Positions 3,444 to 16,797 of a DNA stretch of 64,000 nt are shown in pieces. This stretch comes from a virus (taxonomy: Duplodnaviria; Caudoviricetes), in IMG/VR virus record IMGVR_UViG_3300011217_000001, positions 128,001 through 192,000 of that record. One strand, written 5' to 3'. A program made the translations under genes and the position numbers. Position 1 is the stretch's first letter. Every line of letters begins with the position of its first letter. The notes under the pieces are model-generated. The model worked only from the letters and a program-made list of their open reading frames with translations. It did not search any database and was not told the origin of the DNA.

Positions 3444-3761
3444 TTAGAAGCCGTGACGCTTCAGCGCTTCGTCGATGTCCTTGCCCGAGTAGACCAAGTC
3501 GTGATTCTCCGAGTCTTCTTCGTTGATCTCGGTGAGGGTCAGTTCACTGGTCTCCAGCGCGAAGGTGCGCTGGCTCAGGTTGTCGGTGCCGATGGCGGCG
3601 CGGAAGTGCTGCAGGTCGGCCTTCATGGCCAGCCAGTCACCATCCTGCTCCTTCGTCAGCTCGTTGGCTTCGGACACGATGTTGACATCGTACTGACCCA
3701 GTTCGCGGATCAGGAAATCGTTGTCGTCAAGTGCGTAGTACGTGGGTTTGCCGTTGTTCAT
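3444..3761 (-). CDS. Acidic hypothetical protein
   Basis: Start MNNGKP at 3761; followed by terminator. Confidence 0.7.
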   Translation of the reverse strand: MNNGKPTYYALDDNDFLIRELGQYDVNIVSEANELTKEQDGDWLAMKADLQHFRAAIGTDNLSQRTFALETSELTLTEINEEDSENHDLVYSGKDIDEALKRHGF

Positions 3762-3841
3762 GGTCTTGGTTTCGGTTGTCGCAGCAGAAGGGAATAGACC
3801 CCCCACTCCCTGCTGCAGGAGTGGAGGGTAGAAACTGGGGG

Positions 3842-4438
3842 CTATCGCCTGGCGTAGAAGCGATGATTGCCGATGGTCGCAACGTAGCGTTCATAGCGCA
3901 GTTGCCGGTGGGCTGCCTTGTTCCGGAAGAACAGGCTGTCGTCAATGGGGTTGGGGACAGATCGTGTCAGGACGTCGCGGCTCACTTTCATGGCCATTGC
4001 GTAGCGGTCCTGCTCGCGGATCTTCAGGTTCATCCCAACCCAGTTGTACTCGTATTTACCCTGGTATTTGGTGTGGATCACTCCACAGATGGATTTTGGA
4101 TAAGCTGGATGCGCTGCGCGGTTGAGGGTCAGATACCCTACGGCGCGCATTCCTACTTCACTTTCACCCTTGGCTTCGTGATAGATCGTCCGTGCCATGC
4201 ATTGGATCTCGGCATCGGTGAGCTTCACAGTGTAGCGTTCGTTAAGCGGTATGATTGGAACGGGGAGCTCCACAATCGGGAGCGGATCAACTTCAATGTT
4301 GACCGGAAGAATCACGGCCTCGACAGGCGCCATGACAACGTTGCTGGTGACAACTTGCTGCTTGGGCTGGAAGAGGGTACAGGCGCTCAGGCTCAGTACG
4401 ACCGACATTACCAGCAGGGACTTGATCAGGTTGAACAT
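3842..4438 (-). CDS. SleB/Hydrolase_2 family cell wall hydrolase, predicted lipoprotein
   Basis: CMARTIYHEAKGE..GMRAVG..LNR...YPKSICGVI and C-terminal IGNHRFY; signal peptide with lipobox LSAC. Confidence 0.88.
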   Translation of the reverse strand: MFNLIKSLLVMSVVLSLSACTLFQPKQQVVTSNVVMAPVEAVILPVNIEVDPLPIVELPVPIIPLNERYTVKLTDAEIQCMARTIYHEAKGESEVGMRAVGYLTLNRAAHPAYPKSICGVIHTKYQGKYEYNWVGMNLKIREQDRYAMAMKVSRDVLTRSVPNPIDDSLFFRNKAAHRQLRYERYVATIGNHRFYARR

Positions 4439-7878: not shown

Positions 7879-8484
7879 TCAGTGACTTCCCCAGACTTGC
7901 CCGGCCTGCGACTGGAAGTCCATACGGATCAGTGAGCGATCGTGATACATCCACACAGTGAATGCTCCTTTCACGTCACTCGGTTCAAGCCACATCTCAA
8001 CTCCGGTACGGAACAGCGCGTACAGGAAACGACGCATGGCAGCCCCATGACTGTACCACTTACGTTCATCAGGCCCAGCGCCCCCACACCACTTCTCAAC
8101 TTCCATCTTGAATGGTTCGTCAGAACTGGTCGGGGAGTAGACAATCGCCTTCTCGTGCCGGGGCGGCATGTCACCCTTGGTATTGACAAGAGTAACGTTG
8201 AGCACCTTGAGCATGTCCATACTGCCCAGACCATGCAAACTCAGGAACCACATACGACGCCCCGGTACACGCAGGTTGTGGTAGATGTGGGTCGAATAGC
8301 TGGTGGGCTTATAGAAGTACTCGGCAAAGCGCATGAACAGTGGCGCAAACCACATCGGCAGTTTCTCCGACATCAGTGTCCGGAGAAACTCTTCCTGTCG
8401 CCAGAGGACGTCCACGGGGAGGTCGGCCATCCAGCTTGCGGAGTTTACAACGATGTGACGTTGAACTTGGCTCTTCTTCTTCAT
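7879..8484 (-). CDS. Hypothetical protein
   Basis: 201 aa, ATGA-coupled. Confidence 0.7.
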   Translation of the reverse strand: MKKKSQVQRHIVVNSASWMADLPVDVLWRQEEFLRTLMSEKLPMWFAPLFMRFAEYFYKPTSYSTHIYHNLRVPGRRMWFLSLHGLGSMDMLKVLNVTLVNTKGDMPPRHEKAIVYSPTSSDEPFKMEVEKWCGGAGPDERKWYSHGAAMRRFLYALFRTGVEMWLEPSDVKGAFTVWMYHDRSLIRMDFQSQAGQVWGSH

Positions 8485-8957
8485 TCGTCGCCGCTCTCAT
8501 CCACGAACTCGTTGGTCAGATCAAATCCGATAATGCGCTGGATCTTCGACCAACGTACCCCTTCGCCAGTTGGACTTGGTTCGGTACGCCCAAAGAAACG
8601 CATGGCCAGAATGACCACGTCATCGACATGGTTGTCCAGATGTTCGACCATTGCCTGGCCCATCGGACCGGTGGGTTGGATGATCCCGTAGATGGCATCC
8701 TCACGGATATCCACCGACACGACTGCCAGGGCTACCGACAAGTCGTTGATGTATCCCTGTCGATGAATGCGCTCGGACATGGACATGCGTTCGCTGATCA
8801 GGGGTGGTCCGTATTCACCACGGATCAGATTGTTGGTCAGCCGCTCCTTGAAAGGCAGGCCAATATCTTCGTTGAAGAACTCATCGAACACCTGTTTACT
8901 TACGCCGTTGTTCTCATCGAACTTCAGCAGACGTGCTGCGTACTGCTTGGTTTCCAC
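8481..8957 (-). CDS. Prohead-protease-like (T4 gp21/phiKZ gp175 fold) protein, catalytic His/Ser apparently lost
   Basis: IRGEYGPP (cf. GExGHP), IYGIIQPTGPMG, LAMRFFG (cf. FSxR), IIGFDL. Confidence 0.65.
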   Translation of the reverse strand: METKQYAARLLKFDENNGVSKQVFDEFFNEDIGLPFKERLTNNLIRGEYGPPLISERMSMSERIHRQGYINDLSVALAVVSVDIREDAIYGIIQPTGPMGQAMVEHLDNHVDDVVILAMRFFGRTEPSPTGEGVRWSKIQRIIGFDLTNEFVDESGDE

Positions 8958-10584: not shown

Positions 10585-11424
10585 TTAGATCAGAGGCAGC
10601 TGGATACCACGCTGACCCATGTACTTACCACCTCGGTCGGCGTAGCTGGTCTCGCATTCTTCCTCGCCACGGAAGAACAGGAACTGCGCGATACCGGTGT
10701 TGAGGTAGATACGTGCGGGGATCGGGGTCAGATTAGCGACTTCGATCACTACATTTCCCGCGAAACCCGGTTCGATCGGCGTAGCGTTGATCAGCACACC
10801 GGCACGGGCGTAGGTGCTCTTGCCGATGCACAGCGCAACCACATCGCGGGGCATGTGGAAGTATTCGCGAGTAACACCCAGACCGTAGCTGTGTGGCGGC
10901 AGCAGGATGTACTTCAGGCCGCTCTTCGGGCAAGTGCGGACCGTGGCGTCAACGAGACATTCCTCGTCGAACTCCATCGGATCGATCTCGGAAACGTTCA
11001 TACCGGAGAAGATCTTGAAACCGGCCTCATCCAGCGTCACGTCGTAGCCGAAGCTGGTCGTGCCGTAGGAGATGACCCGCTGACCGAACCTGACCATGTT
11101 CGGGTTCTTGAGCTGGTCTGGCAACTTGCGGACCTGCCCCGGTTCGAACGGTGCGATCATCGGACGCCAGTCCTCGACGTACTTCTCAGCGATCTCCTTG
11201 ACCCTCCGCACCCTGGTCGAGAAGTATTCGTTCTCAGCCAGTATGTCCTGTGGACCAAGACGCGCGCCCTTTGGGAAAAGTCTCGGATAGCTTTCCTCGT
11301 AGACTTCATCCATCTCGCTCTTGATCGTCTCCAGATCTGGAGCGGAGCAGAGGTTGCGAATGGCAACGTCGTTGAGGATACCGGTCTTACAAGCCTTGCT
11401 GACCGAAGCTGCTTGCTGGTTCAT
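10585..11424 (-). CDS. dcd: dCTP deaminase
   Basis: MIAPFEPGQVR, ISYGTTSFGYDV, GKSTYARAG, TPIEPGF.G, GIAQFLF, SYADRGGKYMGQ; ~60 aa N-terminal insertion. Confidence 0.95.
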   Translation of the reverse strand: MNQQAASVSKACKTGILNDVAIRNLCSAPDLETIKSEMDEVYEESYPRLFPKGARLGPQDILAENEYFSTRVRRVKEIAEKYVEDWRPMIAPFEPGQVRKLPDQLKNPNMVRFGQRVISYGTTSFGYDVTLDEAGFKIFSGMNVSEIDPMEFDEECLVDATVRTCPKSGLKYILLPPHSYGLGVTREYFHMPRDVVALCIGKSTYARAGVLINATPIEPGFAGNVVIEVANLTPIPARIYLNTGIAQFLFFRGEEECETSYADRGGKYMGQRGIQLPLI

Positions 11425-11440
11425 TTGAGTCCTTGAATCA

Positions 11441-11983
11441 CTAGATGCGGGTAACCCAGCCGTCAGGCTTCAGGGTTGCGAAGGGGTTGGTCATGTCACG
11501 ACCCTGGTAGCCGTGGAACAGGCGGGGTAGGTCAGTGCGAACGTAGAACTTGCACGACATACCGATACCGTGAGGGCGGCAGGGTTCGACGAAGAAACCA
11601 GTCAGCTGTTGCAGTAGACGTGTCAACGGACCTTCTTCATGCTCGTTGTACATCAGCTGCTCAGGCAGGGTGATGATGGTAGGGTGATTGGTGCGAGTGG
11701 TGACCGAACGATCCAGCAGATCAGCCATCTTGTTGTTCAGCACCCGCACCACGCTATGCAGCATCTGCGCCTTGACTTCGCTACCGATCGGATTCTTCAG
11801 CGGCTTGGTCTTGCGAGCGTTGGAGTCAGCATAGAGCTTCTGCATGCGCTCTTCTTCGCGCCTCATTTCAGCCTGTGCCTGATGACGCTGACGGAAGAAC
11901 TCATTGAAGACTTCTTCCTGATAGCTGTACGGACCATCGCTCGGATCAGGTCCACGTCGATTGTCACGGCTACGGTTAAACAT
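11441..11983 (-). CDS. Hypothetical protein
   Basis: 180 aa ORF. Confidence 0.7.
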   Translation of the reverse strand: MFNRSRDNRRGPDPSDGPYSYQEEVFNEFFRQRHQAQAEMRREEERMQKLYADSNARKTKPLKNPIGSEVKAQMLHSVVRVLNNKMADLLDRSVTTRTNHPTIITLPEQLMYNEHEEGPLTRLLQQLTGFFVEPCRPHGIGMSCKFYVRTDLPRLFHGYQGRDMTNPFATLKPDGWVTRI

Positions 11984-11986
11984 AAA

Positions 11987-12415
11987 TCACCACTGGGTTC
12001 GTTGAACGCCGGTGCGGAACTCTTCCAGACCCGGGATACGGATCTCTTCCCACAGCTCACGTTCGTGCGGTTCGTATTCGGCATACACACGCGTGTTCGC
12101 CGTCACAGAGCGGATGAAGTCACCCACTCCATGAATTAGTTCGGGGGAGTTGTGGCCATCGCGGAAAGCGAAGTCGGCTAGGTAGATTCCCCAGTCAACT
12201 TCACGAGCCACCAGGATCAGTCCCACAACCTGCTGAGTGGGACCATAGATCACCGCCCTCAGATCAGTCAGGACGTAGCGATCCCCTTCATCGGACTCGC
12301 GCAGGTAGGTAAGCATCCCGCGTTCGTCATGATGGATGGAGTTGATGCCACGTTCAGCCATCAGGTTGAGGAACTCCACGTCCCCTACTTCGCGGAAGTC
12401 GTAAAGACTGTCCAT
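11987..12415 (-). CDS. Hypothetical protein
   Basis: 142 aa, RBS AAGGA. Confidence 0.7.
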   Translation of the reverse strand: MDSLYDFREVGDVEFLNLMAERGINSIHHDERGMLTYLRESDEGDRYVLTDLRAVIYGPTQQVVGLILVAREVDWGIYLADFAFRDGHNSPELIHGVGDFIRSVTANTRVYAEYEPHERELWEEIRIPGLEEFRTGVQRTQW

Positions 12416-12424
12416 GGTGATTCC

Positions 12425-12949
12425 TTATTTGACTACCTTCAGGAAAGGTCGGCCTTGGGTCTTGCTGGGGGTTTCCTTGGTGGGAAGCTTGCCAGCGTTG
12501 AGGTTTTCAATGTACTCGTTCAGAGCCGGGTTGTTACCCAGCGACATGCCCCTGCCGGACTCTTCCAGCATGAACGCCGACAGAATCGAATCGACGTCGA
12601 CGATGGCATCGAAGTGTTCGCCCTTGGAACGCGCAGAGAACAACAGCAGACTCACCGGGTCGTGCGGCTGCGGGTCGTCACCTTCACGGTAGAAGGTCAG
12701 ACCACGCGTAGCCTGCTCGCCGAGGTTCAGGACGATGATGGAGATCTCCGCACCCGGAGTACCGTCATCGTTCTCCAGTCGCTGTTTCTGGACCGGCAAC
12801 GTACTGGGCAGCTGATTGCCTTCCCAGTTGGCGACGATGCAGATATGGGGCGATCCACCCATGGCGAAGATCCAGTTGTACAGACCTTCGATGACGAAGC
12901 CGGCAGTGCCGATGTGCGGGTTGATCTGGTTATCACTACGCTTATTCAC
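12425..12949 (-). CDS. sspB: SspB-like ClpXP adaptor protein
   Basis: GLYNWI....SPHI, IVLNLGEQA, FSAR, ILSAFMLEESGRG parallel SspB; C-terminal GRPFLKVVK matches ClpX-binding tail GRPALRVVK; GTG start with GGAG RBS. Confidence 0.82.
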   Translation of the reverse strand: MNKRSDNQINPHIGTAGFVIEGLYNWIFAMGGSPHICIVANWEGNQLPSTLPVQKQRLENDDGTPGAEISIIVLNLGEQATRGLTFYREGDDPQPHDPVSLLLFSARSKGEHFDAIVDVDSILSAFMLEESGRGMSLGNNPALNEYIENLNAGKLPTKETPSKTQGRPFLKVVK

Positions 12950-12998
12950 GTCTTTCTCCGTGGTTACAATAGATTGGTTAGATGCGTTGGGGATTACT

Positions 12999-13034
12999 CT
13001 GTTCGATAGTGTAGGTTTGAAATACACTGGAATA
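12999..13034 (-). promoter_or_regulatory. Putative phage early promoter
   Basis: TATTCCAGTGTATTTCAAACCTACACTATC, matches recurring TTTCA-N3-CTAYAY motif. Confidence 0.55.
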
Positions 13035-13035
13035 C

Positions 13036-13065
13036 GGCATAGGGGAAGAGCCGAAGCTCCTCCCC
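13036..13065 (-). terminator. Hairpin + TATGCC element
   Basis: TTCG-loop stem then TATGCC. Confidence 0.6.
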
Positions 13066-13071
13066 CAATAC

Positions 13072-13191
13072 TCAGCCACATTCACCCTTGAGGGTAAGTG
13101 TCAGCATGTCAGCGAATCTGCAGTTCGCCTCGTGCTGCGCCTCTAACAGCGCCTCGGACACATCTTCTTTTTCTTTGGTTTCTTCGTCCAT
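13072..13191 (-). CDS. Small hypothetical protein (39 aa, MDEETKEKEDV...)
   Basis: Read manually; fills the gap between upstream gene and terminator. Confidence 0.45.
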   Translation of the reverse strand: MDEETKEKEDVSEALLEAQHEANCRFADMLTLTLKGECG

Positions 13192-16602: not shown

Positions 16603-16797
16603 ATGAAAGGCAAAAAGGAGGCACAGCCGGCGGAGAAGACTCGCGCTGAGCTGGCCCACGTGAAAGAAGTGGAAGGTGACAAGTATCCCTTCCATGTGAT
16701 CAACACCGAAAGTGGCGCGATGTTGGCCCGCTTCCCCAAGCAGGAAGATGCGGACCGTTACATCAATGAAGTACCGATTGACCGGCTGGTTGCGTAA
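16603..16797 (+). CDS. Small hypothetical protein, lone plus-strand gene
   Basis: 64 aa MKGKKE...IDRLVA; followed by plus-oriented hairpin+TATGCC. Confidence 0.65.
   Translation: MKGKKEAQPAEKTRAELAHVKEVEGDKYPFHVINTESGAMLARFPKQEDADRYINEVPIDRLVA

Follow-up and report, generated by a model that had tools for sequence, protein, structure and literature searches.

A divergent SspB-like gene with a ClpX-binding-type tail in a jumbo phage related to Xanthomonas phage Xoo-sp14

The locus and its source phage

The window, i.e. the whole stretch of DNA that was analysed (64,000 nt), comes from a virus record of 230,357 bp, of which it covers bases 128001-192000. The gene under study and its immediate surroundings are as follows.

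12425..12949, minus strand: SspB-like gene, 174 aa, GTG start at 12949; ortholog of Xoosp14_69 (61% identical)
12956..12959, minus strand: Shine-Dalgarno sequence GGAG, 6 nt 5′ of the GTG, kept in orthologs
13004..13027, minus strand: phage promoter motif of 24 bases, consensus TTTCA-N4-TATATCA; probably a virion-RNAP early promoter
13037..13071, minus strand: stable hairpin (−24.1 kcal/mol, z −3.9), directly upstream of the promoter
10585..12415, minus strand: three closely spaced downstream genes (two unknowns of 142 aa and 180 aa, and dCTP deaminase), order kept in relatives

The initial annotation had placed the start of the SspB-like gene at 12949. This start was confirmed, since the longer ATG-start frame (218 aa, from 13081) carries an internal stop codon in three orthologs; a 226-aa frame on the plus strand was unsupported. 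The gene is under purifying selection (dN/dS 0.20). An independent 232-kb contig contains the entire stretch and differs from it at two places; the difference within the SspB-like gene is silent and falls in the tail.

Genes of the window match those of Xanthomonas phage Xoo-sp14 both by sequence and by order. The genome encodes homologs of phiKZ chimallin (E 1.8e-21), of the DNA polymerase and of non-virion RNA polymerase subunits. The chimallin and polymerase homologs identify the source as a nucleus-forming jumbo phage; with a record of this length and RNA polymerase homologs of phiKZ type, the carrier of the SspB-like gene is a large lytic phage. The phiKZ PhuZ protein was unmatched in the genome at E 0.01, and the genome search found no tRNA genes. 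From Xoo-sp14, the sole basis for the assignment, we infer a host among Xanthomonadaceae.

The promoter motif at 13027-13004 scored 16.8 bits in the leave-one-out procedure and is the weakest of the 20 training sites. This score was reached by 21 sites on the minus strand, by none on the plus strand and by 0-1 sites per simulated genome. About 20 copies are intergenic, all on the minus strand, including copies ahead of the chimallin and gp68 homologs. A sigma-70 scan gave no site ahead of the SspB-like gene. All jumbo phages profiled have one conserved AT-rich motif of this kind as their early promoter (PMC7598289), with exceptions at polymerase genes of 201phi2-1 (PMC11512511); by analogy, the motif ahead of the SspB-like gene is probably an early promoter as well. 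The gene had been described as the first one after an early-promoter-like motif. The motif is real and its early timing is argued by analogy; the first-gene position is not fixed among relatives, as one of them has another gene between the promoter and sspB. In this relative (L003, positions 3681-3990) the additional gene codes for 102 aa and opens with residues that match residues 1-8 of the window protein; our reading is that an in-frame gene loss or insertion left the start region on the SspB-like gene. In the window, motif copies are located at 13027, 26304, 34165 and 50759. Many motif copies have a hairpin and a short TATGCC box upstream, a combination that could serve to map early operons.

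The hairpin at 13037-13071 probably terminates the unit before it. An acidic 39-aa ORF (13072-13191, minus strand) ends at the hairpin; it is called in two relatives and unannotated in Xoo-sp14. The SspB-like gene and the three downstream genes probably share a transcript. Among the neighbours a Pfam family was assigned only to dCTP deaminase, and the sspA-sspB context is absent.

Several other genes of the region deserve mention. Besides dCTP deaminase (10585-11424, minus strand), a MazG-like pyrophosphatase gene (16834-17727, minus strand) is located near the SspB-like gene; MazG-like genes also lie near the sspB of phage RTH11 and near another probable phage sspB (L015). Orthologs of the gene at 8481-8957 (minus strand), situated among accessory genes, match Pfam Peptidase_S80 (prohead protease-like). 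A convergent gene at 16603-16797 (plus strand) codes for a 64-aa protein ending in LVA, similar to a ClpXP degron. The C-terminus is identical in four relatives; with high conservation over the entire protein, the LVA ending does not stand out.

SspB homology and predicted fold

The initial annotation had described the protein as SspB-like along its length, and the motifs that it named are present: Y24xW26, P34-H35, I72-N75, F104-R107 and E130-G134. The parts of the protein are listed below.

12530..12919, minus strand: SspB-fold domain, residues ~11-140, N-terminal helix and small beta-barrel, from the predicted structure
12743..12805, minus strand: insertion 1, residues 49-69, ~15 extra residues; predicted beta-hairpin in place of the E. 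coli 43-48 loop
12647..12685, minus strand: insertion 2, residues 89-101, ~11 extra residues; low-confidence loop
12497..12529, minus strand: predicted extra helix, residues 141-151; the flexible linker that comes next is short and non-acidic
12428..12454, minus strand: putative ClpX-binding (XB)-type tail, assigned by sequence motif; P-x-L-x-V-V-K, kept in all five orthologs

Sequence searches against Pfam, PHROGs and PDB left the protein unmatched. More sensitive comparisons were consistent in pointing to SspB. Alignment of four orthologs with E. coli SspB by hhalign showed insertions of 15 and 11 residues and gave a probability of 92.6% (E 4.5e-7). A custom HMM, built from 89 SspBs of mostly bacterial origin and run with no filters, scored the SspB-like gene at 47.9 bits and all others of the 230 called genes at 6 bits or less. 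In a profile search of 1.8 billion proteins, the ortholog and two artefacts (the repeat-rich matches P0008 and P0011, set aside as spurious) were followed by 10 proteins, each of them above the Pfam SspB cut-off. The proposed HMMER check against Pfam had a mixed outcome: the curated cut-off of PF04386 was missed, whereas the custom HMM, hhalign and two fold searches all ranked SspB first. Given the PF04386 score, we file the protein as SspB-like rather than as a canonical SspB.

The SspB fold itself was recovered. The top 11 rows in Foldseek were all SspB structures (E 4e-4 to 3e-3). In the all-against-all fold search the top four matches were three SspB chains and an Agrobacterium protein (Z 4.8-6.3; the next match had Z 2.7), and the best exhaustive match was 8ET3 (Z 6.3, rmsd 3.5 over 91 residues). 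An Atlas model had TM 0.61/0.72 to an SspB cluster. The predicted structure is of moderate quality (pLDDT 71, pTM 0.66, TM 0.33-0.52 against solved SspB structures).

Fifty positions are conserved in 75% or more of the 52 reference SspBs, and the phage protein keeps 25 of them. In a tree of 68 SspB proteins, where some rows are labelled phage or bacterial without proof, branches are very long, that of the SspB-like protein included, and bootstrap values are unsettled; hence the tree singles out neither a donor nor a number of acquisitions, and it speaks neither for nor against one shared origin of phage SspBs.

Groove, insertions and dimer helix

Conservation is distributed unevenly along the gene. 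The N-terminal helix (dN/dS 0.10) and residues 102-140 (0.13) are the best-conserved parts, while the two insertions have dN/dS 0.46 and 0.33. Within the clade, identity is 42% in insertion 1, 53% in insertion 2 and 80-87% in the core. Residues 124-143 form a conserved new patch, nearly invariant within the clade.

In the groove, equivalents of E. coli N54, A59, F72, A74 (A/G), R75 and G78 are kept in orthologs (among them, in phage numbering, N75, A80, A/G106 and R107). F76, found in 52/52 reference SspBs, is S or A in the phage protein, and the 43-48 loop is replaced. We take this loop of E. coli SspB to flank the ssrA groove in SspB-ssrA structures, and Y44 and F76 presumably have contact roles. 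In the iLID system the changes A58V and R73Q weaken ssrA binding (PMC7147098); if H. influenzae numbering is assumed for iLID, both sites map onto kept groove motifs. Judged from these alignments, the dimer helix is altered as strongly as the groove. Its signature is mostly lost (R10, P11, Y12, R15, A16, D23 and N24 are all changed), and the predicted N-terminal helix, near-invariant within the clade, differs from that of bacterial SspB.

The initial annotation had characterized the protein by a divergent groove with insertions and a conserved tail. The tail, the change at F76 and the replaced 43-48 loop agree with this picture; the several kept groove residues do not. The same pattern had been taken as the mark of a retargeted adaptor or a competitor, which we found to be half supported. 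The insertions vary within the clade and so do not have the look of a fixed new binding surface; this variation does not suggest a fixed new specificity. The dimer helix is changed as much as the groove. As 25 of the 50 conserved positions are lost, many of them outside the groove, long-branch drift can explain much of the pattern. The ‘changed once, then held’ pattern of the clade fits a shifted client list together with a private dimer interface.

The kept groove residues may equally well reflect unchanged ssrA binding or a structural role. With unchanged binding the protein would act as an ordinary booster, still holding ssrA-tagged chains and adding delivery capacity during heavy phage translation. 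We consider such a role unlikely. The equivalents of N54, A59, A74 and R75 and the tail are all retained, over the SspB domain some phage copies (pf16, FLC4) reach 41-53% identity with E. coli SspB, and the gene likely shares an operon with dCTP deaminase, all of which fit a booster. On the other hand, F76 is lost and the presumably groove-flanking loop is replaced, 94 of 101 genomes of the host class (a tally that takes in the unpublished genome G037, its sequence left aside) have an SspB of their own, and no tmRNA was found in the phage.

The ClpX-binding-type tail

The C-terminus GRPFLKVVK, described in the initial annotation as close to the E. coli SspB tail, indeed matches it in seven of nine residues. 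Residues P, L, V, V and K of the tail are invariant in five orthologs, while the adjacent linker is just 33% identical. With a matrix built from 17 distinct SspB tails, the protein scored 20.2 bits; the 65,975 internal 8-mers of the proteome all scored lower. Residues 158-174 have pLDDT <50 and are predicted to be a flexible linker and tail. The linker has ~14 residues with net charge +2 in the phage protein and 44 residues with net charge −14 in E. coli; short linkers are common among bacterial SspBs too. Among 16 scored phage or probably phage rows the tail is kept in 12, and in two others it precedes a short extension.

The tail segment of E. coli SspB binds the ClpX N-domain, as described with the SspB architecture (PMC9963277), and the XB peptide alone binds ClpX and suffices to recruit a target for degradation (PMC12373786). 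Judged by its tail, the SspB-like protein very probably engages host ClpX in some way. Prediction of a complex between residues 141-174 and a dimer of the X. campestris ClpX zinc-binding domain gave 0.06 (mark 0.34), which speaks neither for nor against binding. In the 99%-complete phage genome searches for ClpP, the ClpX zinc finger, AAA_2, ClpS, HslV and tmRNA found none, so the ClpX partner would be the host enzyme.

The tail also bears on the possibility that the domain has been repurposed, i.e. that the barrel now binds some partner, of phage or host, that has nothing to do with ClpXP, the tail being a relic or binding something else. The failure of Pfam, PHROG and PDB sequence searches and the almost invariant patch at residues 124-143 would suit such a protein, as would the SspB homologs of RTH11 and LucasX, which are without the gammaproteobacterial tail. 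Against this, the protein ends exactly in a near-perfect XB motif that is under selection, and most of the phage rows have such a tail; we regard a repurposed domain as quite improbable.

A second protein with an XB-like tail

Scoring the C-termini of all 230 genes with the tail matrix revealed one other outlier (13.0 bits, with 0.007 expected; the third-best gene scored −2.2).

19035..19436, minus strand: protein of 133 aa with a second XB-like tail, no known family; possible second ClpX-tethered factor, by tail motif

The gene is located 6 kb from the SspB-like gene. When the SspB HMM was compared with the 230 called genes, the 133-aa protein showed no SspB homology beyond the tail. It is 91-94% identical in close relatives. 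Distant homologs (26-41% identical) in two remote Xanthomonas jumbo phages, RTH11 and LucasX (gp191), end in P-x-L-x-[VI]-V-[KR], and the genes are located 2-3 kb from the SspB-like gene of each phage. The predicted fold has pLDDT 45, and the fold search with this low-confidence model was uninformative; Atlas feature matches were all <0.9. In our view nothing hints more strongly at a role of ClpX tethering in these phages than the 133-aa family with its conserved tail. This family is the least described part of our results and the more interesting by-product.

The SspB homologs of LucasX (L006, 2453-3019) and RTH11 (L007, 2495-3034) end in a basic V-x-x-x-D-F-R motif, an ending that resembles the alphaproteobacterial SspB tail. 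A similar V-x-x-x-D-F-R-type motif occurs internally in LucasX gp191.

A tail shared by two otherwise dissimilar proteins could mean that ClpX occupancy is the point. The SspB-like protein would then be a competitor or decoy: the two tails of a dimer would occupy ClpX N-domains, or tagged substrates would be held unproductively, with host adaptors and N-domain-dependent substrates blocked. Damping of the RseA/sigmaE envelope-stress response would be an example. A competitor of this kind was proposed for pf16 gp18 by modelling (PMC5587285). The tail is better conserved than the domain, and the short neutral linker could spoil the geometry of delivery. However, a protein serving purely as a decoy could do without a folded domain, and here the core is under strong purifying selection (dN/dS 0.10-0.13) and groove residues are kept; many bacterial SspBs have short linkers as well. 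Poisoning of host SspB through heterodimers looks unlikely, given the heavily changed dimer helix. On balance a decoy is improbable.

Proposed role

The most likely reading, which we hold tentatively, is that of an adaptor tethered to host ClpX with an altered client list; we count in its favour that the groove is still constrained while F76 and the 43-48 loop are changed. Such an adaptor would be made early in infection and would stay in the host cytoplasm, presumably as a dimer. Its C-terminal tail would dock on the N-terminal zinc-binding domain of host ClpX, and the remodelled groove would hold a client peptide. Proteins different from the set served by host SspB, or a wider set, might thus be fed to ClpXP; as a guess, the clients could be regulators of host stress or defence, or else proteins of the phage itself that need clearance.

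A broader and doubtful extension is that this phage group runs a kit directed at host ClpXP, comprising a retargeted SspB and the non-SspB 133-aa adaptor family, both acting as binder-plus-tether degraders that would destroy defence or stress proteins early.

If the adaptor reading is true, a nucleus-forming phage would gain control over protein turnover in its host through ClpXP; as a means of host takeover or of counter-defence, this route has several times been proposed from sequence. Targeted degradation in bacteria would also gain ready-made models in such natural binder-plus-tether proteins. To this the window gene adds one more divergent example, not the idea.

Comparison with known systems

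Genes of this kind were already known: a GenBank annotation and two papers predate our analysis. The novelty of a phage SspB-like adaptor is removed by the Xoo-sp14 entry and by the work on pf16 and RAY. Xoosp14_69 (QNR51760.1), annotated as ‘ClpXP protease specificity-enhancing factor’ (a label only), is an ortholog with 61% full-length identity; gene order, promoter and hairpin are all common to the two phages, and substitutions are confined to the insertions, the linker and two variable tail positions.

A search of a phage collection with E. coli SspB gave 92 records, mostly of jumbo phages, including phiKZ gp232 and RAY gp39; a viral structure library added SspB-like matches in PhiPA3, 201phi2-1, PhiEaH1 and VAP7, among others. 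Gp18 of Pseudomonas phage pf16 was described in 2017, by modelling, as an SspB with a competitor model (PMC5587285). Gp039 of Erwinia phage RAY is SspB-like and cytoplasmic (PMC10299810), and phiKZ gp232 was part of a construct set that mostly gave diffuse signal outside the shell (PMC10449902). The phiKZ gene takes 22 and 43 transposon insertions (10.1101/2025.11.23.690004) and is therefore dispensable in the laboratory. In the searchable literature we found no functional test of any phage SspB. As Xoo-sp14 is a cultured relative and insertion mutants of phiKZ gp232 exist, the function is testable now.

RAY gp039, pf16 gp18, phiKZ gp232 and the structural matches likewise come from large lytic phages and join an SspB-like domain to a ClpX-type tail. 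Identity of the window protein to other phage SspBs is 12-26%, and its insertions and the change at F76 are its own. With bacterial SspB (E. coli / H. influenzae type; PF04386; PDB 1OX9, 1OU8, 1YFN and 8ET3) it has in common the fold, the domain-linker-tail layout and the XB tail. It differs in the two insertions, the loss of F76, the rewritten dimer helix, the extra predicted helix and the short non-acidic linker; the gene also has no sspA neighbour, the sspA-sspB operon being typical and not essential. Steering of host Clp proteases by unrelated sequences has been described as well. ClpS adaptors of jumbo phages (PMC7824862) have been proposed to act in this way, although ClpS serves ClpAP, and T5 Gp00X (PMC11806420), a 31-aa peptide that triggers RpoS degradation, is reported to steer a host Clp protease.
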